The position numbers and the translations under genes are program-made. Shown here piece after piece: positions 8,518-64,000 of a stretch of DNA of 64,000 nt. The stretch is from Eledone cirrhosa. Lineage: Eukaryota. Every line of letters begins with the position of its first letter. The stretch's first letter is position 1. Location: NCBI GenBank assembly GCA_964016885.1, contig OZ024743.1:59024001-59088000 (forward strand). The letters run 5' to 3'. The notes beneath the pieces are model-generated. The model saw nothing but the letters and a program-made list of their open reading frames with translations, ran no database searches and was not told the origin of the DNA.

Positions 8518-8561
<44 letters not shown>

Positions 8562-8567
8562 TATATA

Positions 8568-8699
8568 GAAATAGCCGTCGAAACGGCTTGAGCTCTGCCG
8601 TCGGGGTCATACTTTTTCCTATTTCCCTCTCTACTAACCTAAGTATTGAGTACTCTGGTGCGTTATGGTTCATCTGGTTCCTTACCACAATTCCTTTGT

Positions 8700-8700
<1 letters not shown>
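8568..8700 (+). repeat. PLE pseudo-LTR-like repeat carrying the 3' half of a hammerhead
   Basis: GAAA-cggc-ttgagctct-gccg-TC-gggg; same family at 56794-56990, 57345-57390, 57440-57650, 59770-59820, 59985-60035. Confidence 0.7.
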
Positions 8701-8731
<31 letters not shown>

Positions 8732-8929
8732 AATATTGAAGAATAACATGATATTCTTCAATATTTCACTATTATCACTCCAAGAATAACGTGCATAGGA
8801 ATTCCCGCAAATTCGCTACCTACCTATGGAAACATCTTGTTGAGTGAAACAAAGCCGTACGTTAAAACTATCCAGAATACGGAGTACTCCCAACCTCTCA
8901 CTGGATTACCTATAACGATAACTTGTTAT

Positions 8930-16997: not shown

Positions 16998-18788
16998 ATG
17001 GCTAATTCACCTCTGCACCAAACAGCTGAAAGCCTTCCTCACAAATTAACACCTCACACCGACACCACCATTGTAAATGTTACTACGTTTGCCAACACAA
17101 AAAAAAAAAATATAAGCAGTAGCAATATTTTAAATTTGTCTCAGGCAGACATTCATTTCCCGCCATTACCAATGACTGCAGGTGTTAAAGCCTCCACCAC
17201 CACCACCACCGCGACAACCACCACCCCCACCACCACCGCGACAACAGAAACAAAAGAAGAAAAAAATAAATTAACTCGTGATGTCGAAATGAAATCAAGC
17301 AAAATGGACTCTTCCGCACCAAAGACGACTGACGTCACCACCACCACAACTGAAACTAAAATTAAGATTAACACAAATAACGATAGCAACAACAACAACA
17401 ATGACATTATAAAACCGACCCTTAGTTTCGCCATCGTAGCAAAACAATTCGAAGCGTTCACGGTAACTCAAGAGGATTTAGAAAATGCCAAACAAATGGT
17501 AAAGAAAGATGGGTACAGGGTCAGCCTCACCCCCCACCTAATAAAATGGAGCATCGGCGCCTATGCACCGTGTCGTATAGAACAATAAATGTAAAATCGC
17601 GTAAGATCAGGGTGACCCACGTGCCGCCGGCCATCGAAATTCCATGGCTAATAGCGGCTGTCCTCGCCGGGATCGAAGCCAACACGAAAATAATAGCAAT
17701 AGCAAAAGAAAAGCAGGAAAACTGGTCCGGATCTGGGATGGAGCTCCTAATCCAAGCGGACCAAAAAAGCATTGAGGAGATCCCAGAGGTAATAGACCTC
17801 ACTGACGGCAGCCACCTCACGGTAATTGTCGAGGGCAGAAGACCTAGGTGTGTCGTTTGTGGTGAAGGAACCCACCTAAGGGCTTTCTGCCCTCAGGCTA
17901 AAAGGTTGAGGCCACCTCTCCTACCCAACCCAGTGACACAACCATCAACACCACCAGTAGCAGAGATGGCAGCAACAACTGTAGCAGCAACAACAGAAGC
18001 AACTATAACAGCAATAACCCCAGCAACAGTAGCAAAACCAACACCAATACCACCACCAGCAAAACCAACACCACCACCACCCAACGCTTCAGAACTAGCA
18101 CCAGCGCCTACACCATCCACCACACCAGAACCAAAACTAACGGCTGTGGAGGACTTTCCACTCCCCGGCCTATCACAACTGGAGATAGATTGTGACGACG
18201 AGGAGTGGGAACGATATCCGGAAAAAAAAAGAAACCAAAAAAGAAAAAAATTCTCTTCCTTCCCCCTCCAAAAACAAAATACAGAGGGAAACAAATAAAC
18301 TAAGAAACAAAAAAGTTAGGACAGATATGCCACCATCCACACCAGCATCACCAACCCCATCAACCCAAACACCAACACCATCACCATCATTAACTCCAAC
18401 ACCACCATCACCTACACCACAAAAGTCACCAAAATGCGAAACAGAAACAAACCCACAACAAACGCAAACAAAACAAGACAACCAAAACGATACACACTAC
18501 ACAGCATTAAATTTGAACAACAAGCAATTATTACACTACATCCAACACAACACCAGCATCACAGAAAAAGACTACACAACAACCCCAAAATTCACACCAC
18601 CTCCACACATACAAATCACTCGCATCACACAGAAAACGTACAAGACACTAAAACAAAAATTCCCCAAAGACATCGGAGACTTCCGACAAGCACTCTCCAG
18701 GAGGATTTATAAGGACATCCTTCCTGAGGAGGCCACAAGCAGTGAAAAGGATGGAAAAACCGTCCTTCCCCTACGAGAAATAAGGTAA
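16998..18788 (+). pseudogene. LINE ORF1 (frameshifted twice)
   Basis: ORFs 16944-17588, 17546-18298, 18192-18788; CVVCGEGTHLRAFC zinc knuckle; Pro/Thr-rich linkers. Confidence 0.85.
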
Positions 18789-18822
18789 GTGGTCTTTCCC
18801 ATATTTTCCACTCCTTTTCAAC

Positions 18823-21800
18823 ATGACCTCACTCAGAATAGGCAGCATAAATGCGCGTGGCTTGGGGTCGTCATGGAAGCAGGGCCACCTGCTCAACGAC
18901 CCCAGGTCACTAAACATAGATGTAGTGGCCATCAGCGAGACCAGAATCTCCGAAGCACAGGCTTTCGCAGCGATCTTCGGCGGCTACGATGTCTCCCAGC
19001 CGTCCGGGATCGGGGGGGGGGGGGGAGGAGTTGCTGTGCTTTTTCGGAGAGGTTTGGATCTTGCCATACGGGCCATCTTCCTGGACCCAGAAGGTAAGTT
19101 GGTGGTGCTGGACGTGACCAGCGGAGACGGGCATGCTTTCAGGTTAGTGGCCGTCTATGCCCTGACAGGAGCAGGGCGGCCTGATTTCTTCCGGCGTCTG
19201 GAGACCTTTCTTGGAATGTCCCGCTCTTTAGTGTTAGTGGGTGACTGGAACGGGATCTTAGATGCACGCTGGGATTGTGTGCGATTAGTGGATAGGGAAG
19301 GAGGGTGCAAGAGTCTCACCAACCTGCTCAGACGTTTTGAACTGTCTGACAGGTACCGAATGGATTTCCCGAATTTACCAATGTGGACTTGGACAAATCG
19401 CATAGGGTCATCCAGATCATATCTAGATAGAGTATTTTGTAGGGAAATAGATAGGTCTAGCTTAGGCTGTCCACAATTCAAGATAGTCAGCTACACGGAC
19501 CACAAATTCGTGATCTGTGTACTTGACTTAGATAGGCTTCATAGACGAGGACCCGGCTACTGGAAGCTAAACGCGTCCTTACCAGCGCGCAAGGCCTACA
19601 GAGACCGTATTAGCGAACTAGTTAAGCGGGCGTTGACGGGGGCCATCGTCAACAACAAGTGGTGGTATGCTCTGAAAAGAGCAATTAGAATAGAGTCCAT
19701 TAGGTTTAGTAAGACTTTAGCAATAGAGAAAAATAGAGCAGAGGGAGAATTAGTTAGAAAATTAGATGAGGCGCTTAGCAAAGGCATCGCGACCGACGTA
19801 CTTGCGGCGAAATTGGCCCTTGACCAATTCTTCAATGCAAAGCACGAAGGCTGCGTTGTCAGAGCTAGGGTGCGTGCTCTCAGACACGAGGGGACGAAAG
19901 CCGTTCAATGGGCCCGAGTGGCGGAGGCGCGTCGTGGCAACAAAGCCACGATCCGGTCTTTGGTGGACCACGACGGGCGCATGCTACTCGATCCCGGGCA
20001 AATGTGTGAAGCTTTTCAGCGACACTTCGCTCAACTGTTCGGGGGCAGTGGCTGGACGAGATCGAGGGATGGACTTTAGTGTCTACCTCGACGGACTGCC
20101 GCGGCTTTCGGCCACTGAGGCGGAGTGTTGCGAAAAGCCGATAACAACCGCTGAAGTACGGGATGCAATGACTAGTTGCACAAGGGGTAAATCGCCTGCT
20201 TTGGATTATCTGCCCTATGAACTTTACGTACAAATGCCAAACTTGTTCGGAGGCCTCTTGGCGGACGTCTACTGCAACTGGCAACAGAACGGAAGAATTC
20301 CCAGCTCTGTGAGCCGAGGAGCTGTGGCGCTGCTGAGAAAGGATCCGAACAAGGGGGTTAACATAGATACTTTTAGGCCCATAACTCTGCTAAACACAGA
20401 CTTCAAGATTTTGGCCAAGGTGCTAGCAAAGAGGTTGGCGCTTGTCGTTGGTGGTCTGGTGGGAGAGGCACAGACATGCGCCATTCCCGACAGATCCATC
20501 CACGACAACCTCCACCTCATGCGATACATCGTAGAGAGGGTAGCTAGGGAACCTGGCACGGGTGGGTCTTTGATCAATTTAGATCAGTCGAAAGCCTTCG
20601 ATAGGGTCGACCATCGTTACCTAGCGGCAGTCCTGAGGGCGGCTGACTTTGGGCCCGTCTTCAGAGGCTGGATCGCTGCCATGCACAGCGACATCTGCTC
20701 TGTAGTGAGAGTGAACGGTCACCTTTCGGAACCGTTCAACATCATCCGCTCGGTCCGCCAAGGATGTCCCCTCTCGTCCCTATTGTACGTATTGACTCTC
20801 GAGCCATTACTGCACAAGCTGGAGACGTTGAGGGGGGTCCCGCGCGATCTAGGATGCGGAAGATCCGTGTCAGCATATGCCGACGATGTCACCGTAGTGG
20901 TGTCGAACGCCAAACACATCGAGGCGATCGGCACTACACTAAGAGAATACGAAGCGGTGACAGGAGCAATGATCAACCAGGAAAAGTCAGTGGGCCTGCA
21001 GCTCGGCACCTGGAGAGGCAGGTCCATGCCGTCCAACAGCGTCGTCGGGCGCTGGACGGACGGACCGGTTAAATTGCTAGGGGTCTGATTCGGTCCAGAC
21101 CTCCAGACGGACAAAAACTGGGACGAGGTGACGAGCAGGGTGGCTTCTCTCACCCAGAAATGGGCCGAGATGAAGCTATCCCTGAAAGGTCGAGCGGAGG
21201 TGGCGAATGCGTACATCGCATCCGTCATCTACTACCGCCTGACCGTCGTACCTTGTCCTAAGCCCCGCCTGACTGCGCTGGAGCGTTTGCTCTTTCGCTT
21301 CTTGTGGAAGGGACGCGCTCCGATGGTCAGGCGGCTCATCTGCTGTCAACACCCGCTACGTTGAGGGCTGGACATGCCGTGGCTGATGATGCGCAGACAC
21401 GCGCTCAGGCTACAACATCTCCACCTCTTCCTCGACGGTGATCAGGTGTGGTCGCCGTTTGCTAGACACGTTTTTCCCCAGCTCGTCTCCTTAACGGAGC
21501 TGCAGTCCTGGGTCAAGCGAAGACCGAGAGGGAGCGCTTGGAGACTGGAATGTCTTCAGGCGCTCACAGCCCTCGACCAATCGGGCAATGTGATCGGTGG
21601 AAACTCCACCTTGGCGTTCTATAGGGGATTAGTGGAGGGGAAGAGCGACGACGTACTTGGAGAAACTCTAGGCGTCGACGAAAATCAACTAGCCAATCTC
21701 TTCGGAAGGACTTTCGGGCCGGGGCCTATGGACAACTTCCAGAAATCCCTGGCCTGGCAGTGCTACCGAGGAGCTTTGCCAGTTCGGGATAAACTCTACA

Positions 21801-22243
21801 GGCATGGAGGTGCCGTCAGCCGGGCATGTCCGAGATGCGCGCAGGGCGACGAAACCGTCCTGCACGCACTCGTCCAGTGTCCGAGCATTGCTGACTTGTG
21901 GGTTTATGTCGAACACCTGCTGTCACGTGTAGGACGGATCCAGCTATCAGCTGAGTCCATCGTGAGGATTGCCCCGCCCCCTTCCTTTAGCCGGGAAGGG
22001 CAGGCAGTTTTTATCTGTCTGGTGGCCATGACGAAAAAGATAGTATGGTGGACACGTTTGAAAGGGCTGAAGACGAGCACTTACCTCTTCGGTGATGCCC
22101 TGATTAACTTTTTCAAATTTCATTTGAAAAGGAAAATCAGGGTAGAGAGGGAAGTGCTCTCTTCCCAGCATTTTGTTGAAAGATGGGTGAGAGAAGCAAG
22201 TATGGCCCGAATGAAAGGGCCTTCTCTGAGCATGTGTCTGTAA
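18823..22243 (+). pseudogene. LINE ORF2 (APE endonuclease, reverse transcriptase, zinc finger), disrupted
   Basis: SINARGL, ISETR, GDWN, YLDRV, TDH; FRPITLLNTDFKILAK, KAFDRV, VRQGCPLS, YADD; CPRC..ETVLHALVQC; one frameshift near 20045 and TGA stops at 21086 and 21362. Confidence 0.93.
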
Positions 22244-22536: not shown

Positions 22537-25500
22537 TCCTTGAATCTCAGTCATTGATGTTGGTTAACTGGAAAGTCCGTTGGATTGAATATCAAGCCAC
22601 TACCTGCAGCCTCAGATATTCAGGACGTATCGGAGGGTTCTTGCTGTTCCAAGCAAGCATGCCTTTTGAAGCGTTCCAAAAAGCGTGAAGGGGCCGATTT
22701 TCTTTAACCATCCCTGGAAACATTTGGAGATAGTCCCCAGTGCGCCTATGACAATCGGGATCACTTTGACTTCATGGCAGTTCCAAATCCTTTTCACCTC
22801 CCACTTTAGGTCCTGGTATCAGTTAATTTTCTCCCTCTCCTTCTCTTGCACTCTCGTGTCGAACGGGCAGGCCACATCCACAATCAGACACGATCTTTTT
22901 TCTTTGTCCACAACCACCAGGTCAGGTCTATTGTGTTCCAGTTTTTTGTCCGTCTGTATCCTAAAATCCCACAGCACCTTCACCTGATTGTTCTCCATCA
23001 CCGCCTCTGGCCTATGCTCATACCATTTCTCAGAATGTGGTAGATTGTTTACTTTGCACAGGTGCCAGTGGATCACCCTGCCCATCACATCGTGTCTCCA
23101 GCCCTTATAGTGTGTCTGGGCTAGGTGTTTACAATCGGACACAATGTGAGCCACAGTCTCCTCTCTCTCTCCACAGATCCTGCACAGTGGGCTGGCCTCC
23201 TCCTTGTAGATATGGTGCTTCAACCACTTCGTTTTGAGGGCCTGCTCCTGCGCAGCCATTAGCATTCCTTCTGTAGCCTTTTTGAGGTCTCCTCTTCTCA
23301 ACCAGTTCCATGTCTGTGGATCTCTAAATTCAGTTTTCTCAAAGAAGGTACTATGAAGGGGTTTTCCCTTAAGGCTGCTCTTCCTCCTTGATGTTATTTC
23401 CTCCCTGGACATCCCCTGGCCTACTGTCCCCTCCTTCAGTACAGCTCTGAGCATTGGCTCCTTACTATAGGTCACGTATTTGTATAGGTTGTTTTTCTCC
23501 ATCTGAACACAGTCCTCTATGCTGATAAGACCTCTTCCACCCTCAGATCTCCTTAGGTAGAGTCTATCGACATCACTCCTCTTGTGGAACATGTTGTAGA
23601 TAGTCAATAGCTTCCTAGTCTTCCTATCCATTTCTTTCTGTTCAGCAACATTCCATCTCAGAATTCCCGCTCTGTACCTAATAATAGACACAGCTCGGGA
23701 ATTTACTGCGCTTATGGCATTTCTGCTGTTCAGATGTGACTTCAATACGCTCCTTACTCTCCGAATGTATTCAGTTCTTAACAATTCCTTCATTTTTTTG
23801 TTCTTTATGCCATCAGCCTCCAGAACGCCCAAATACTTGTATCCTTCCTCAGAGTCAATTTCCTTTATCATCTCACCTGTTGGTATCTGGATCCCGTTAC
23901 TTCTGCTCAACCTACCCCTCTTCATCACAATGACTCCACATTTACCAATACCAAACTGCATACATATATCACTGCTGAAAATACGGACAGTGTCAACAAG
24001 CACATCCAACTCCTTCTCACTTTTCCCGAAGAGCTTAAGATCGTCCACGAAGAGGAGGTGATTGATGGTAAGCTCTCCCCTTCCCAACTTGTATCCTGCT
24101 CTCACTTTTCGCAGCATAATGGTCAAGGGCATCAGGGCAAGGACAAACAACAGAGGGGACAGGCTATCTCCCTGGAAGATACCTATCTTGATCTTCACGC
24201 TTCCCAAGGATACTCCAGTTGATGTCAACTCTGTCTCCCAGGACCCCATACTCCTGCCTAGCAACTGTCTGATGTTATCCGCCACCCTGAAGATCTCCAG
24301 GCTTTTGGTGATCCAGGAATGAGGCACCATGTCAAATGCCTTTCTGTAGTCTATCCATCCCATGGCAAGATCAGTGTGTCTCCTCCTGCAATTCCCCATT
24401 ACCATCTTATCAATAAGCAACTGGTCCTTTGTACCACGTGACTTCTTTCGGCATCCTTTCTGTTCGTCCGGTAACAAGTTGTTTGTGTGGAGGTGATGGT
24501 AGATTTCCTCAGACACAATGCTCGTCAACAGTTTCCACATTACGGGCAGACATGTGATAGGTCTATAGTTGGTAGCATCATTACCCTTGATTCGGTCTTT
24601 CATTATCAGAACTGTGGTACCTTTTGTCAACCACTCTGGCACCCCACCCGACACCAAGCAGTCATTGAACATGGCCGTCAGCTTCGGGTGGAGGGATGTT
24701 AGATGTTTAATCCAATACCCCTGCACACCATCTGGGCCTGGCGATTTCCAGTTGTATAGTTTTTTGGCTTGTCCCTTAAGAGTTTCAACTGTGATACTCA
24801 AATCAGTCTGTTGCTGTGCCTGCTCACCGATCTCCCTCTGTACTGTCTCAATCCACCCTGCCTGGGCATTGTGTCTAACATCCTGCTCCCATATTCCTCT
24901 CCAGAATGTTTTAGTTTGCTCCGCCCCAGGGATCAAGTCGTTGCCTCTTTCTTTGCCCTCAAGCTGTCCAAACAGCATCTTCTGGTTGTTGTCGAACATG
25001 CGGTTCTGTTTATACTGACTGACTCTGTTCTCGTATCGCCTGATTTTTGCACTCTTTGCTACAATGCGTTGCTTCAATTCCTCTATGATAATATTTAGCT
25101 TTTTACTCCTAGTTTTGTATTTTATTTCCAGTCTATTTTTAGTGCCTATGTTTTTTAGTGTCCCATTCAGTAGTGACTCAAGCTTTCCTATGTCATTTCT
25201 CATTTCCCCGATTTGCCCACTCAGTCGCTTCTTCCACCACGGTTCTGCTCTTTCTTGTCTGTTGTTTCCTCTCGCTTTTATACCAAGTAGTTTCCTCACC
25301 GTATTTGCTGTTGCTCTGAGGATATTGTTGCACTGGTGAAGGCTCCTCGCCTCAAGGTATGGGATGACTTTGTTTACCTTAGCTGTTGTTTCTTTTAACT
25401 TTTTCCTGTCTACAAATCTTAGGTTCATAGGTCTCCCACTATCATTGTTCAATTCATCTACCACTAAATTTAGGATGTCAACCGAATCTTGTCCTAGCCC

Positions 25501-26136
25501 GTCAGCATTCATCTCCTCAGTGGCCGTATCTCTGTTCCAGGTATTATTTATCTCAGTACTCAGATCATTGTCTGCTTCGGGTGGTTCCTCCGTCCTCAGG
25601 ACCTCCTCACCTTCATTTCCCACCGGCTCGCTTGTCTGGCATACTACACCCGCCATCTCCAAGCCATTCTCTCTGCTCAGTTCCTCCAGTTCCAGCTCGC
25701 TTATCCACCCATTAGTTCTTATTACCCGAGCCTGCCCGGCCAATTTTTGTTCATCTAATTTAAATAAACCAATCTCGTTCCAGATGTTATGCATCCGTCT
25801 CCTGTAGCCCCTCTCCTTGGGGTTACTTTTCAGGTAGCATTGCATAACAGTTCTATTCAATTCTTTCGTCCAGTTGGTTCTGGCCCCTTTCCTTCTTCTC
25901 CTTCCTCCAACATCAGCAGTATTTGGTTGACAGTCAGGTTCCTGCTGCTGAGCCAGGGGGCACCTGTTGGGTGAGAGTCTGTCACATGACGTTCTAGTCT
26001 CCATTTCACCGTTATTCGAACTGTTTATGTTCGATATTTAAACACTCTTATCGAGGATTGGCGAATGTATGTTTACATAGCCATCTGTGGGTCCGCCATC
26101 CCACTTGGCCCTTGTGTGGCATTATCACCACGCTGT
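22537..26136 (-). mobile_element. R4/Dong-clade non-LTR retrotransposon (restriction-like endonuclease)
   Basis: Single large ORF; 3' end in (TAA)n, the known Dong target; 5' boundary approximate. Confidence 0.92.
22612..26004 (-). pseudogene. R4/Dong polyprotein (RT, CCHC, RLE) with one premature stop
   Basis: NYRPITCL, WIDYRKAFD, GIFQGDSLSP, HLLFVDDLKL; CRICGEREETVAHIVSDC; RHD, RPDLVVVD, DVACP; TGA at 22819-22821 where the second copy has CGA. Confidence 0.92.
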
Positions 26137-30921: not shown

Positions 30922-30964
30922 GTCACTGAAGAGGTCACAGCATGTGTGACGAAAGAACTTTGAC
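30922..30964 (+). ncRNA. Minimal type I hammerhead ribozyme
   Basis: gtca-CTGAAGA-g-gtcaca(gcatg)tgtgac-GAAA-gaac-TT-tgac. Confidence 0.78.
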
Positions 30965-31314
30965 AATATATAAACAACCATCTGGTTGTGGAACCAACCA
31001 ACCAACCGGAAATTTATAAATTCCTAAATTTATAAATTTATTATAATAAATTGAAGTGAAAGCAATGGTGCGTGTGTTTCTTATTGGCAACATGACCCTC
31101 CCAAAGTATAACAATATATATATATATATATATATATAATTAACTATCTCTTCTACATATATATATTAATATATATATATGTAGAAGAGATATTTAATTT
31201 GTTGGAAATCCAACAAATATAGATGTTTATAACTGATTCAGAGCACTCACAGATTTCTTGAGTAAGTATTCAATGATATTAAATAAATGGAAACTATATT
31301 TATAAAACCATATT

Positions 31315-31376
31315 TATTCTATTATATATATTTCAGGGGTACCAACAATTTCGGTACGCTATCATCAGATAAAATA
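31315..31376 (-). ncRNA. Type I hammerhead ribozyme
   Basis: tattttat-CTGATGA-t-agcgtacc(gaaattgtt)ggtacccc-t-GAAA-tatata-TA-atagaata; 8-bp stem I. Confidence 0.7.
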
Positions 31377-32284
31377 CAAAATGTTTTATAAATATTTGAC
31401 ATGACCAAAGATAATATACCTTAACGGTTCATGTTATCCCTGCAAAGTGAAGGGAAGAGAGAAGAAAAGTCAGACATTTAAAATTATTAATATGAGTATG
31501 CAAATTATGTTTATATTAAAGGGCAGAAAATACGTTATTTTAGAGGCTATGGAAAATTTAAATAATTATGATAAAGAAGGAAGAGAAAGAAAAAGAGAGA
31601 GGAATAACGTTAATTTTGGGGAAAAATGTGTTACCTATATTATGAGTTATAATATTGTATATAAATTATATGAAGACTTATGGTTGTAAGTATGTTTATC
31701 TTATTACAATATGTATATAAATATGTCTCTATATATTAATAAGTTGCGTATGTATTGATTGTTTATATAACAAATTTGAGTAACGAAGGATGTTGAAATC
31801 TTAAGTTGTGAGGTTAGAATAATTTGAGGATCCAAAAATGTTCAACATTGAGAATGTTTTCAGAATATTGTAAATTTAACGAGGCTATATAATTTATCAA
31901 ACAAAAATCGTTAAAGAAGAAGGAAAAGGAAGACCACTTAAACGTTAATTTAGGGGAAATATGTTAAGACATTTATTTATATTTATATGGAGAATTATTT
32001 ATCTTATTATAATAATATATAAATATCGATATATATTTTAATAACAGCATATGTATTTTTTATTAAAAGGATAGTTTGTTTATAATATGAGTTACGAGGT
32101 ATGTTTATTTATAAATAAATACAAAATAGGTGGTTGTTCATAATATAAGTTACTAGGGATTTTATGTAAATAAACAGGTAGTTTTATTGATAAGGTTTAA
32201 ATTTAATTAACGGAATTATGTATGAAAAGTTTTATGATTGAATAAAGGAAAGATAACTCCGATTTTTTTTTTATTAATCGCTAG

Positions 32285-32728
32285 TGTGGGAACGTAAAAT
32301 GTAACTGCAGAATCAAATCAAATTGCCCTTTACAAAATAAGTGTTTAGATAAAAACATAGTTTATAAATGTACATTTAAAACTAGTGGTAATATATTCAA
32401 CTATGTCGGTGCCACTTCTACAGAATTTAAACTTCTCTGGAATAACCACAATCATTCTTTTAGAAGATCTGACAAGAAATCTTCTACTACCCTATCAAAT
32501 CTTATATGGAACTTAAAAAGCAAAAATATAGACTATTCATTATCTTGGAAAACGATTTCGAAAGCACCTGCTTACCGAAACACGGCCTTATCAAGATTCT
32601 GTAAATTATGTATTGAAGACATTTTTTGTACAATTAATTGTAAAAACTCTATTAACCTAAAAACAGAAATATTTAATTGTTGCAGACATTGCCAAAGTTC
32701 TACATTCAGAACAATATGTAACTTATAA
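32285..32728 (+). mobile_element. PLE GIY-YIG domain, open frame of 147 codons without a start codon
   Basis: CNCRIKSNCPLQNKCLDKNIVYKC...NYVGATSTEFK..WNNH...TTLSNLIWNLK...W...Y...CKLCIE...N.KTE..CCRH. Confidence 0.88.
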
Positions 32729-33928: not shown

Positions 33929-34860
<932 letters not shown>

Positions 34861-35079
34861 TAATATAAGAATAAAAGGCATCTATGAAGAAACAGTAAAT
34901 AAATACGCTATAGAATATTTACCAACATTTCAACAGCACGTGGAAATTAATTAAATACACGGTCAACCATACATAAATACCTGTGACTTTGTTTAATTGG
35001 TGTATGTGTAAATATTTATATTTAATAATCTCCCATAAGGTTGAGATAACAATTTGGGCGATATTGGGCTGCGCTTTCT

Positions 35080-35185
35080 AGCAACCAACCCACTCGCCGT
35101 AAGCAACCAATCACACTCTTCCTGACTTAACCACTGCCACGTCACAGTTCTCAACCATTTTGAATTCGTGTTTGGCGGGAGCCAC
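35080..35185 (+). promoter_or_regulatory. Promoter-like motif cluster upstream of a hammerhead
   Basis: CCAAT 35107, CCACGTCA 35137, TTTGAA 35159, TTTGGCGGGA 35171. Confidence 0.4.
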
Positions 35186-35214
35186 TTCAGAAAATAATAT
35201 GTCCTAGAGGGTTT

Positions 35215-35294
35215 ATCCCCTGAAGAGCTCTAAAACTCGAGTATGAACCTTAAATAAGGTATCTCAAAGGTGAGCGAAATCAATGGGTCGGGAT
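35215..35294 (+). ncRNA. Type I hammerhead ribozyme with expanded stem II
   Basis: atccc-CTGAAGA-gctc...(acctta-aa-taaggt)...gagc-GAAA-tcaatggg-TC-gggat. Confidence 0.8.
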
Positions 35295-35299
35295 TTAGT

Positions 35300-35633
35300 G
35301 ATTTAGTCCTGGTATGTATATAAGCATTCCTAGCATTAATTTTTACCTAATTATGTATGGTTGGCCGTGTATTTAATTAATTTCCACGTGCTGTTGAAAT
35401 CTTGGTAAATATTCTATAGCGGTTGCACGCGAAGACGCCACGATGGAGTATTTATTTTCTGTTTCTTCATAGATGCCTTTTATTCTTATAGCCTGGTCTA
35501 ATTGATTTTTTGTGTGGTTAATTATGCTGATTGGGAGTAGAGATGATGTATATATATTATCAAATAATTCTCTGGACATGCTTACTCTATAGTATCTTGC
35601 TCTGATTAATTTATTAATTCTCCATTGAGCCAC
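35300..35633 (-). pseudogene. Unknown element-borne ORF remnant antisense to the hammerhead
   Basis: Homologues at 34860-34975 (+) and 58783-59043 (+) with many synonymous differences. Confidence 0.65.
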
Positions 35634-35695
35634 ATCGTGACAAGTTGCAATAACACATATATACCTGTAACTTTGTTTAATAGGTGTATGTTTAA

Positions 35696-36795
<1,100 letters not shown>

Positions 36796-56793: not shown

Positions 56794-56990
56794 TATAGGA
56801 ACGAGTAGGACCCCGACGGCTGAGCTCAAACCGTTTCGACGGCTAACTCAGGACCAGAATTAGCCGTCGAAACGGCTTGAGCTCACCCGTCGGGTCCTAC
56901 TCGTTCCTATACCCCCACTTTACTACCCTAAGTATTGAGTACTTTAGTGCGTTATGGTCCATCTGGTTCCTTACCACATTTCCTTCGTTA
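56794..56990 (+). repeat. Palindromic half-hammerhead repeat
   Basis: Near-perfect hairpin 56794-56911, then a tail shared with 8620-8700. Confidence 0.8.
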
Positions 56991-56991
56991 T

Positions 56992-57040
<49 letters not shown>

Positions 57041-57439: not shown

Positions 57440-57646
57440 TAGGAAAAGAGTCACAACCCCGATGGCAGAGCTCAAGCCGTTTAGAAAGATATTTTGGGAC
57501 AGAAATAGCTGTCCAGAAATAGCTGTCGAAACGGCTTGACAATTGCCGTCGGGGATAAACATTTTCGTATTACTCACTCTACTATCCCAAGTATTGGGTA
57601 CTCTGCTGCGCTATTGTCCATCTGGTTCCTTACCACACCTCCTTCG

Positions 57647-57650
<4 letters not shown>
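57440..57650 (+). repeat. Second palindromic half-hammerhead repeat
   Basis: ccccgatggcagagctcaagccgttt...gaaacggcttgacaattgccgtcgggg plus shared tail. Confidence 0.75.
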
Positions 57651-57691
<41 letters not shown>

Positions 57692-58738: not shown

Positions 58739-58776
<38 letters not shown>

Positions 58777-58782
58777 TAAATT

Positions 58783-59043
58783 ATGTCTTTAGAATCACTA
58801 GATATAATATATACCATTTCTTCTCCCAATTACCATAATTAACCATATAAAAAATCAATTAGACCAAGCTATAAGAATAAAGGCTCCTATGAAGAAATTT
58901 TCGACAAATAACCGAAAGCAAGCTCTTCGCGGTGGCCACGATAGAGTATTTATCCAACATTTCAACAGCATGTAGAAATCGACCAAATATACCGTCAACT
59001 ATACACAATTAGGTGTAAATTCAAACTTAGAAGAAATGCGTAA
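58783..59043 (+). pseudogene. Second copy of unknown ORF antisense to hammerhead
   Basis: [31 protein letters not shown]...FQQHVEIDQIYRQLYTIRCK, with frameshifts. Confidence 0.65.
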
Positions 59044-59054
59044 ATACCTTAATA

Positions 59055-59130
59055 ATCTCTACCATGGTTTCGTCCGTATTTTAAGACATCCAATAACAGG
59101 AAATGTCCAGAGCTTCGGATTCATCAGGAT
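59055..59130 (-). ncRNA. Type I hammerhead ribozyme with expanded stem II
   Basis: atc-CTGATGA-atccg...(ggacat..atgtct)...cggac-GAAA-ccatgg-TA-gagat; stem I weak. Confidence 0.68.
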
Positions 59131-59182
59131 CGAACTCAAAATTAGACATTTAATGTTCCAAAGTGATCGCGCCATTTATATT

Positions 59183-60395: not shown

Positions 60396-60398
<3 letters not shown>

Positions 60399-63300
60399 CG
60401 TTTCTGAATTTGTTTAGCAAGATTCTTTATCTGAAGACGTGTGTTGAAACCGATATTGTTATACTTTGGGAGGGTCATGTTGCCAATAAGAAACACACGC
60501 ACCAGTGCTTTCACTTCAATTTATTATAATAAATTTATAAATTTATGAATTTATAAATTTCTGGTTGGTTGGTTGGTTCCACAACCAGATAGTTGTTTAT
60601 ATATTGTCAAAGATCTTTCGTCACACATTCTGTGACCTCTTCAGTGACTGGGGATTATTTTCTTTGTTTTTGTGCCTCTCCCTTTTTCTGTCCTACGCCA
60701 TTTTGTTTCTGTGTGTGTGTTGTGTGCTCAGCCTGCGCATGCGCCACATTCGGGTGTCTGTGTGTGTTTATATTCGTTTATTTATTTGTTTATTTACATG
60801 TTACCGTTTGGTTGTTTGTTCTATGTGCGTGTGTGTTTTCATTTTATCCTTAATTGTAAGTTGTGATGTTGCTGTTCCACTCATATTTTCTATTTAATTT
60901 TGGTTGTAATTCTTTTATGTTTATTGCCTCTGTGATTTGTCTAAACATTGCGTCTTTTCTGTGTGTAGATTCTATTTTTATTTCTATGTTCTCTAATTTA
61001 CGCTTATGTTCGATTTTAGCATCTTGGTAGAGTACAGATGATTCTTTACTATCTTGAATGTCTCGCCAGTGTTCATTTATCCGTTCCTCTACACTACGAG
61101 CTGTCTCACCTATGTACACTATATTTATGTCTCTACATTGTCCTTCAGTACATCTTATGCTATATACTACATTTCTAGTTTTACACTTAATATGGGGGCT
61201 TATTTTACAGGTTATACATTTCTTATCTATACAGGGGGGTCTTTGAAAAGGGTATGTCTTGCTAATAAGTGTTTTTACCTGGTCTTTCTACTTTCTTAAT
61301 ATTGAGTTTATGTTTATCTAGGGCCCTTCTAAATCTGTAAGCTAAGTCACCTCTAGGGGTTGTATCGATGAACATTACACTCTGGTATTTATTGCTATCA
61401 TACCATGAGTTTATTCTATTAGCCTTATTCCTGGTTCTTTCTATTCAATTCCAAAATTTGCTCCTATTCAAGGGGCAGGTCACATTTGTGTCATTATTTA
61501 CCATTTTTTCCCATTTAGTTCTGGCTCCTCTATACACTCTGATTCTATCTCTCAGATTGTAACCAGAGAACTGCATACGGTGGATGAACTGTTGTATGTG
61601 TCTCTCTAGTTCTTCGGGGTTGCACATGCGGGACACGTTTCTCATCACCCGTACCACATCCGCAATCAGTATGTTGATTTTGGTATGGTCCGAAACAGCT
61701 TAGTTTCGGTGGATCAGATGTTTGGATGTCATGGGTTTGGCATAATGGGAATGGAGGATTTGTTTTTTGTTATTAATGGTATCTAACCAGAGCTCTGTGT
61801 CTAGTACAGGTAATCGATGGTTGGGGTGTTTAAACTTGGGTAGTCTATAGTAACTCTAATACTCTGGTGGATGGAGTTAGCTATTTGCTGGGTGCTTTCC
61901 ATTGTGTTTTTCTCTAGTTCCTGACTGTTCTCTAGTGGGGGTGTCTTAACTACGATGTTTATATCATCAACGTAGCGGGAGTACATTATGAGGTTTAAGG
62001 GGTCTTCTAATTGTTCTTTAAGTTTAAGTTTAAGTCTACTGTCCCACCATACCATGAATAAGTTAGCTATGTCGCCTGCAATGCTAACACCAATGGCTGC
62101 TCCTTCCTCTTGGGCATATGTTTTTCCATTAAATTTGAACATATGTTCCTTAAGGGTTAGTTTTATGCTGGCCCCTACCGCATGTGCAATAACTTTCTTC
62201 AGTTCATCGTGGTTTTCGGGTGTCCGTATGGCTCTGGTCCACCCGTTCCATCTTTCTGTGTGGGTTTCTTGACCATTGAGGTAATGGTAGGTGGTCTGCC
62301 TCTTGCTGGTCTTGTAGGGCACAGGTTGCTAAGGTCATATGTGTCTAGGTAATTATTACTATAGGTAAGTTTAAGTAGGAGTCCCAGCTCACTGGTATCA
62401 ATCCCACGGAACTCAACATTGCTCTCATTTTTTACGCATTTTTCCACAGCAAAATTCACGTCAATAGATGGATATAGGGACACAACATCCATACTACCTA
62501 TTATGCAGTTTGTTAGGTCCCTAGATCGGTTACTCTCGCCGATTCTGCTGAGGAGGTCCTCCGTGCCGTCACATACATCTGGGGACATTTCAATGATGGG
62601 CGTATGAACAGGGAGAGGAAGTAGGACAGTCTGTAGTTACTAGCAATGTTAGGTCCACAGACTGGCCGTGTTGGTGGTCCCGTGACAGGGTCACTGCCCG
62701 TTTTATGGTCTTTTCGAAGCCGATACAACGCCGGCACGTCATTATTCCAGGCCTGGAAGTTGTTGGCAGTCCTTTTGTTGGGCTGCATTATATTCGTCCA
62801 CATCACCATATGGGCATTGAGGGCTTTTTCTCTATCCTCATGCTCCTGTGGTGTTACGTCTCTTGTGTTAGTGATGTGGGGTTGCATTGCCTGGATGTAG
62901 TTTGGCAGGCTGTCAACCGACATTCTGCCAGACTTGCCTGTTGGAAAGCATGCTATCTCTCCATTACGCGAGCGGTGCATGAGCTTACGCAAGCCATTTG
63001 CAGATTTTTCTCCCAGTTGCTGGGCCTCCATTCTATTATGCTTCTTGCTATACTGTTTTATAATATTTCTAAGTTCGGATCTAGCTATACTAAATTGTGC
63101 TTCTGTTTGTTCATCGACCTGCGACGTCAATTGCGTGCGTTTGTGAAATGGTAAATTCGTGGCGTGGACTCGTCGCAGGTCGAACGACTTATCGGAGGGA
63201 TTATAAAAAGTAGAGTTCCAGGCTGCTGATTTATGTGTACTAGTGCTATTGTTATTGTTAGTTGTGTTGTTTCTATTTCTATTTCCACCAACAGCCTCAT

Positions 63301-64000
63301 GGTTGTTTCTATGTCTCTCATTATTACTCCTGTCTCTTTCCACTGGCTCATTGTTATTATCTACTCTATTTTGTGTGTCTGTGTGTTGGTCTTGGTTATT
63401 TTCTTTGTCCATAGTCTCCCTTCTCCTTTTAATCTTATTACTTTCCCTTATTTCTGTGATTTCTGCGCTACTGTCATTACTTGTTTTCTGTGTCTGTGTG
63501 TTTGGTAAGATTGTGTTGGTGGTTAAAGGTATTGAATGTGTGTGTGTTGTTGTTGTTGATGTGTGCTGTTGTTGATGTGTGTTGTTGTTGTTGTCTCCGT
63601 GTGTGTTATATTTGTTGTGTATGTTGTTATTGTTGTTTGTGTCTACGTGTCTGTTGTTGTTGTTTCTGAGTATGTTATTATTGTTGGTGTGTGTGTTGTT
63701 GTTGGGATGTGTGGTGTATGTGTGTGCGTATGTTGTTACTTTTGATTTTGTTTTTGTTTTTGAGGCTCCAACGTAATTTTGTAAATGATTTTTCTATTTC
63801 TGATAGACGACTAATCATATTTACCTTCTTGAATGCCGCATACTTAGGTGGCAGTTGTAATACAGATAATTCATCAGGATCTATTGCCGTGTTGCCGTAC
63901 ATATTTGTGTTGTTGTTGTTGTTGAACTCATCTGTTAATGAGGTGTCGGCCATATTTATACCGTCAATTTTGTCGGGATATCTATTGATATTCTCTACAG
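60396..64000 (-). mobile_element. Penelope-like retroelement, Naiad/Chlamys-type, frameshifted RT and GIY-YIG with 3' pseudo-LTR
   Basis: RKDHK...TRPV, GSMDVVSLYPSID, QEEGAAIG..M.WWD, RYVDD, KPM, MQFSGY; Cys linker C..KKCITC...CKTRNVVY; YIGETAR, RQITEA, LNRKYEW; runs off the right edge. Confidence 0.9.
60606..60648 (-). ncRNA. Minimal type I hammerhead ribozyme in the PLE pseudo-LTR
   Basis: gtca-CTGAAGA-g-gtcaca(gaatg)tgtgac-GAAA-gatc-TT-tgac; sense to the RT ORF; palindromic stem III. Confidence 0.85.

Follow-up and report, generated by a model that had tools for sequence, protein, structure and literature searches.

The locus examined here lies in a 64,000-nt stretch of the Eledone cirrhosa genome (contig OZ024743.1; "the window" refers to this whole stretch) and is one monomer of a high-copy, non-autonomous Penelope-like repeat, a non-LTR retrozyme. 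We are confident that the family is best explained as a hammerhead repeat, likely a non-coding element that depends on an autonomous Penelope-like element (PLE), whose reverse transcriptase (RT)-endonuclease copies the repeat's RNA in trans, and that the supposed antisense gene of the family likely reflects a conserved RNA hairpin. A preliminary description had placed an ambisense element at 35080-35640, with a promoter and hammerhead on one strand and an ORF for a novel helical protein on the other. That description was right to see a mobile element related to Penelope that bears a hammerhead and in which promoter-like words are conserved, and right that hammerhead and antisense segment are linked, a linkage that recurs in other copies. 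The element itself is longer than described, consisting of a monomer at 34971-35654 plus a tail to about 35696. Copy 1 at this locus and copy 2, elsewhere in the window, share 74% identity over 269 nt. The features of these copies and of the adjoining PLE are as follows:

34053-34863, minus strand (hammerhead-sense): 5'-truncated autonomous Hydra-clade PLE (family C), followed by (TA)n
34139-34144, minus strand: donor-like GTATGG at stem I of family C
34144-34183, minus strand: family C hammerhead
34367-34863, minus strand: end of the family C GIY-YIG endonuclease
34864-34979, minus strand (hammerhead-sense): third partial copy, with an internal deletion, joined to the Hydra fragment without a TA spacer
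34971-35654, plus strand (hammerhead-sense): full monomer of retrozyme subfamily A, 684 nt (34971-35024 recurs at 35655-35708; the tandem period is 684-688 in other loci)
35027-35047, plus strand: small predicted hairpin ATCTC..GAGAT, kept in alignments of A, B and D and altered in H
35107-35180, plus strand: promoter-like words CCAAT (35107), TTTGAA (35159) and TTTGGCGG (35171), with conservation counted per subfamily
35215-35294, plus strand: type I hammerhead with a long branched stem II and a short stem III, predicted to cleave after 35289
35312-35317, plus strand: splice-donor-like GTATGT directly after stem I, at the base of the hairpin in family folds
35312-35560, plus strand: predicted rod hairpin of about 245 nt, the segment read as the antisense ORF
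35373-35579, minus strand: 68-codon antisense frame including the stop, not conserved as a frame
35575-35595, plus strand: first fixed 3' end, likely a reverse-transcription start site
35655-35696, plus strand: start of the next monomer, reaching the second fixed 3' end, then (TA)n
58773-59175, minus strand: copy 2, a 5'-truncated subfamily B monomer ending at the first fixed end against (TA)n
58790-59047, minus strand: hairpin segment of copy 2
about 59055-59131, minus strand: hammerhead of copy 2, in which stem II has an A-C mismatch at its base

Both long-stem-II hammerheads reported earlier are present and are of type I, with stem II inserts of 47-49 nt. The fold is supported by paired changes in stems I and II from one subfamily to another, such as ATCCC/GGGAT in A versus ATCTC/GAGAT in D and GCTC/GAGC in A versus GTCCG/CGGAC in B. 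A strict hammerhead pattern is intact in 24/30 A, 19/21 D, 9/19 B and 11/22 intermediate copies and in 23/29 copies of a sister family, H; only 1/31 copies of subfamily F carries it, F having a stem I strand that differs from the pattern used. The best that Rfam gave for copy 1 was an HH9 match below the gathering threshold of 52 (18.2 bits, E 0.3); its scan of the whole window gave no hammerhead match, and unconstrained folds of the hammerhead alone were not significant. The donor-like word after stem I is kept in 26/30 A, 26/31 F, 16/19 B and 21/21 D copies. The promoter-like words CCAAT, TTTGAA and TTTGGCGGGA stand in copy 1 as described, and copy 2 is 5'-truncated and lacks CCAAT and the upstream TTTGAA. 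The word aaatggcgcga that had been read as a promoter element in copy 2 keeps only part of the E2F-like word, its 'aaa' being flanking DNA. We take these words to be CHR- and E2F-like, their function being putative.

The 3.0-Gb genome was searched with both copies, and 40 matches were scored for each. Copy 1 matched many loci at 90-96% (40 scored of 3858 candidates), and copy 2 did so at 92-97% (40 scored of 4430 candidates). First-look candidates by family were 3858 (A), 4430 (B), 3322 (D), 4703 (F) and 2497 (H), sets that overlap and are not copy numbers; exact motif scans gave 773 and 4888 matches, and their reversed controls gave 0. Monomers measure 684-688 nt in A, 655 in B and 672 in D, with a range of 655-690 nt over the subfamilies, and one satellite-like tandem array extends for about 25 kb (C1:92991092-93015559) at a spacing of 657-666 nt. 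Contigs from three public runs of one sample, which are uninformative on RNA, contain head-to-tail joints as well as the majority extra G that is absent in copy 1. A tree of 93 near-complete copies forms a ladder that leads from A through intermediates to B and then D, and F and K are further subfamilies. In the sampled loci no flank was shared beyond the monomer and no RT or accessory ORFs were found in the unit; 30 loci collected by the shared tail motif yielded only more non-autonomous subfamilies. The sister family H has a 486-nt monomer (L311:275-760) that matches the main family at 66% over 224 nt (E 5e-16). The long-stem hammerhead, the CHR/E2F-like words and the tail with its two ends are all retained in H, as is a donor (GTGAGT/GTAAGT), and the antisense-ORF/hairpin segment is absent from it.

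Insertion ends indicate how these copies are likely to have been made. Hammerhead-sense 3' ends pile up at two fixed sites with about 105 nt between them; 41/53 A, 33/37 B, 38/42 D and 31/36 H ends fall in the two commonest bins, and a TA run follows 41 A, 32 B, 40 D and 32 H ends. The 5' ends are scattered. Both orientations are present in 19/30 A, 10/27 B, 14/26 D and 7/29 H loci, and across many contigs the insertions border on (TA)n at internal sites. When the six commonest bins listed for each family are considered, ends close to the cleavage site number just two, one in B and one in H. Partial tandems, an inverted 5' copy, a tail with two ends and a microsatellite target together make up a Penelope-like insertion anatomy; tandem, inverted and tailed copies are described for PLEs in PMC8557442, and two-site internal initiation with a dispensable hammerhead in PMC11167929. 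From the fixed 3' ends, the scattered 5' ends and the fit to two-site internal initiation, therefore, the template was likely hammerhead-sense RNA.

The form of that template bears on a different account, in which the family spreads mainly by rolling-circle copying of hammerhead-cut circular RNA and not through linear multimers. We regard this as quite possible, although on balance we do not favor it. Pieces longer than one monomer occur in 20/30 A, 13/27 B, 12/26 D and 29/29 H loci, and these, the 25-kb array, the retention of hammerhead cores in A and D copies and the circles shown for other animal retrozymes (PMC7229834) all agree with it. However, linear read-through multimers explain the same arrays, and stem III is short. 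PLE hammerheads are reported to cleave poorly in vitro (PMC4209133), and cleavage was dispensable for a Poseidon element in vitro (PMC11167929). Rolling-circle copying is compatible with copying in trans by a PLE enzyme, and only the template differs.

Physical contact with autonomous elements is seen at the locus itself. The third partial copy, correctly described earlier as inverted, is followed directly, with no TA spacer, by a GIY-YIG endonuclease frame that shares its hammerhead-sense strand. The adjoining family C (about 2.7 kb) has RWR, DKT, CSCRKPEAC (CxCx5C), a C-terminal GIY-YIG, a sense hammerhead and (TA)n, and judged from its sequence by published features (PMC8557442) it is a Hydra-clade element. 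Its junction with the third copy is absent from the other matches listed, and the block 34053-35696, which has a (TA)n run on either side, therefore probably entered as a single composite insertion. Elsewhere, copies abut two further Hydra-type families (L037, L186) and a Neptune-type family (L146, L032), again with no spacer. Other neighbors are set apart by TA runs and may be independent insertions. In DNA and tblastx comparisons the monomer shared no sequence with autonomous families C, C2, C4, E5 and G, of the larger number that the genome holds; with no shared sequence in these five sampled families, the partner enzyme is one that we can only infer.

Several other elements lie in the window. 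A Neptune-type PLE (RT and CCHH-type endonuclease) occupies 60398-63800 (minus strand), and its minimal hammerhead at 60644 recurs at 30926 (plus) and 30718 (minus). The endonuclease end of Hydra-type family E5 lies at 32285-32728 (plus), with an inverted piece of the long E5 pLTR at 31300-32280, both unrelated to the small element. Repeats at 8551-8736, 56840-57025 and 57499-57684 match the pLTR/tail of C2, a Hydra-type family in whose hammerhead both stem II and stem III are long. Families C and G carry TGCGCATGCGC, presumably NRF1-like, upstream of their hammerheads (34210-34240, 60730-60750), unlike the CCAAT/CHR/E2F-like words of the small element. We take 18784-22243 (plus) to hold LINE-type endonuclease/RT frames, 22819-26037 (minus) to hold a 1072-aa RT frame, and 35836-36732, to the right of the retrozyme locus, to be a transposase-like remnant with inverted ends.

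The antisense frame was the basis of the earlier protein claim, and it did not behave as a conserved gene. In copy 1 it does not run up to stem I as had been stated; it encodes 68 aa from an ATG at 35579 to a stop at 35373-35375. The peptide quoted for copy 2 is spread there over more than one frame, and the FQQHVEI ending of copy 1 results from the loss of 1 nt, a deletion not shared by most copies of family A. Differences between the two copies had been called often synonymous; among comparable codons there are 46, of which 9 are synonymous and 37 fall in amino-acid-changing codons. An antisense frame of at least 60 codons from the ATG is open in 17/30 A copies and in none of the F (0/29), E (0/7), B (0/19), BD (0/5) or D (0/21) copies, so that it is broken in 81/81 copies of five non-A groups. 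F copies mostly stop after codon 43, and K copies stop at codon 17 in 5/5. When the segment was shuffled 500 times, a frame of at least 67 codons arose in 50% of shuffles from stop to stop and in 17% from an ATG. A conserved antisense protein is thus not supported, the frame being of chance length and open in subfamily A only.

Substitution patterns were examined on both strands. Over six ladder steps, which are not independent, changes were flat across antisense codon positions (23/24/24; S13/N32, p about 0.5). Across the lineage this is the outcome that the preliminary description had itself set as refuting its reading. The synonymous excess claimed previously survives modestly for A versus B (S10/N7; positions 8/12/20; p 0.011 relative to changes within families, with no correction for the six frames) and is absent along the ladder. 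A sense frame with the same wobble column also shows an A-versus-B excess (S9/N10, p 0.043), and B versus D gave none (S3/N9). A likeness of the peptide to the thumb of Hydra RTs, noticed by eye, was rejected: its best score against a 120-protein Hydra profile was -0.7 bits, and shuffles reached 2.1.

These results also bear on whether the segment could be fossil coding sequence, on either strand, from a parent that is extinct or was not found, and of which RNA structure alone is still maintained. We consider this unlikely. Points in its favor are an ATG-TC whose position is shared by the majority of copies in every long subfamily, the A-versus-B third-position excess and the Atlas result for the window peptide (recognition 2591, first match 0.95). 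However, that excess appears in the sense frame too and is gone for B versus D and along the ladder, and the ATG is the reverse of the GACAT at the conserved first 3' end. The first Atlas matches are bacterial hypothetical clusters, unrelated, with 159/256 features in common, and the majority-A peptide scored 2191 with no usable match. Besides the Hydra profile, Pfam gave 0 families for 3 peptides, the protein collection had no match to the peptide at longer or near lengths (a weak search for so short a query), and the PDB matched it only at E 0.63-0.87. An ambisense element encoding a functional helical protein, similar to Athena/Terminon, is very improbable and as a conserved gene largely refuted: although the frame of 67-68 aa is open in part of subfamily A and a single-sequence model is helical, that model is one long helix (pTM 0.36), the frame is broken in all other subfamilies, family H lacks the segment, the ends are (TA)n without telomeric repeats, and the linked autonomous endonuclease ORF lies on the hammerhead-sense strand.

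The segment is more likely a conserved RNA hairpin on the hammerhead strand than a protein-coding region. The predicted rod extends from the donor-like GT to a point roughly 20 nt short of the first fixed 3' end. Fold z-scores were -2.27 for copy 1, -4.27 for copy 2 and -4.76 for a D copy, and the antisense strand of copy 1 gave -0.15; this strand asymmetry points to RNA rather than DNA structure. All of 22 copies picked across subfamilies had negative values (-1.5 to -4.0). Subfamily K gave weaker values for the hairpin (z -1.2 to -2.2), those for H did not reach significance (z -1.1 and 0.3), and the whole monomer is only mildly structured (z -1.4). In a 69-pair consensus, 97.9% of cells pair, compared with 41-43% in slid controls, mostly through A-U/G-U and G-C/G-U exchanges; changes on both sides were found in only 3/69 consensus pairs, no more than shuffles give (130/500).

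Pair keeping differed between changes that separate subfamilies and private mutations. Between subfamilies, pairs were kept in 38/63, 43/62 and 34/60 changes (57-69%), whereas private mutations kept them in 67/199, 65/191 and 61/180 (34%; p 1.7e-4, 1.1e-6 and 1.6e-3), the structures coming from three single copies that are members of the tested set and the ladder steps not being independent. The exchanges of A-U or G-C with G-U are transitions, as are 8/9 of the synonymous differences between copies 1 and 2; of these nine, four keep a predicted pair, three are unpaired and two break a pair. Counts of A>G versus T>C, the signature of A-to-I editing, were 27 versus 26 at paired positions (p 0.13) and 19 versus 16 at unpaired positions (p 0.02, in a set of several tests). 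Within the hairpin, at 35472 and 35491 (plus strand), stand two polypyrimidine-AG words that are varied but kept in A, B and D and are possible splice acceptors.

The position of the rod led us to a tentative proposal, which we hold to be more probably wrong than right: its base may hide the pLTR splice donor while its 3' foot stands about 20 nt before the first start, so that the RNA would stay unspliced and be presented to the borrowed Penelope enzyme. In the mechanism that we envisage, a CCAAT/CHR/E2F-like internal promoter would transcribe tandem arrays, and a Hydra or Neptune RT-endonuclease would bind the RNA in trans near the hairpin and tail. The borrowed enzyme would then nick (TA)n and start reverse transcription inside the RNA at either site just 3' of the hairpin, copy through one or more monomers, and truncate, invert or switch template. 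Multimers may be resolved into monomers or circles by the hammerhead, which would probably act as a dimer and does not set the inserted ends. The 34053-35696 block would likely be one composite insertion made by template switching.

The family fits the known animal non-LTR retrozymes: each monomer bears a type I hammerhead, tandem monomers of a few hundred nt are dispersed, without LTRs and with no PBS or PPT apparent, and no protein is encoded. According to PMC7229834 and bioRxiv 10.64898/2026.07.22.740005, retrozymes are likewise non-coding, low-GC tandem monomers with a type I hammerhead each, range from dispersed monomers to long arrays, co-occur with PLEs and have been proposed to be non-autonomous PLE derivatives. 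Unlike those, monomers here measure 655-690 nt (486 in H) compared with a typical 150-450 nt (51-972 nt in the preprint), and they have a 47-55 nt stem II insert, explicit PLE-type tails, inversions, TA targeting and a conserved donor with a rod hairpin. Hydra-clade PLEs share with them a hammerhead-sense pLTR and (TA)n insertion (PMC8557442, section 11); in this genome, a donor-like GT also stands at stem I of family C, and the hammerhead of C2 has a long stem II. The small element differs in lacking RT and endonuclease and in having no DNA similarity to the four Hydra-type families examined.

Other PLEs offer partial parallels. In Poseidon PAc, too, ends fall at two fixed internal positions that lie downstream of the hammerhead and away from its cleavage site, and targets are AT-rich (PMC11167929), but the PAc tail is 30-40 nt compared with about 105 nt here, and here no ORF lies downstream of the hammerhead. 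The PAc hammerhead is dispensable, and PLE hammerheads in general are weak in vitro (PMC4209133). Chlamys MRC1-type elements are non-autonomous PLEs with pLTRs and head-to-tail insertions; unlike the present family, they resemble autonomous partners at the 3' end and are mostly without hammerheads (PMC8557442). Athena/Terminon elements have a hammerhead motif and head-to-tail arrays (PMC6431247), but the likeness drawn to them earlier does not hold, as our units have no telomeric repeat beside the hammerhead or at their ends, contain no RT, accessory or other ORFs and sit at internal (TA)n sites. In the literature searched, which took in only a minority of subscription papers and repeat databases, we found neither this family nor the donor/hairpin feature described, and likewise no antisense ORF in a PLE and no hairpin that hides a donor.

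These data remove a candidate for a new ambisense protein system and provide an invertebrate-type example of retrozymes with full Penelope insertion anatomy, including two internal starts, inversions and junctions with Hydra and Neptune elements. This anatomy bears on the proposal that Penelope enzymes move retrozymes. The conserved donor and hairpin are a concrete candidate for a cis-element in enzyme recognition and intron retention. If the proposal is true, a donor-hiding hairpin would account mechanistically for two unexplained traits of PLEs, the retention of their intron and internal initiation, and the subfamilies would form a natural test series for it.
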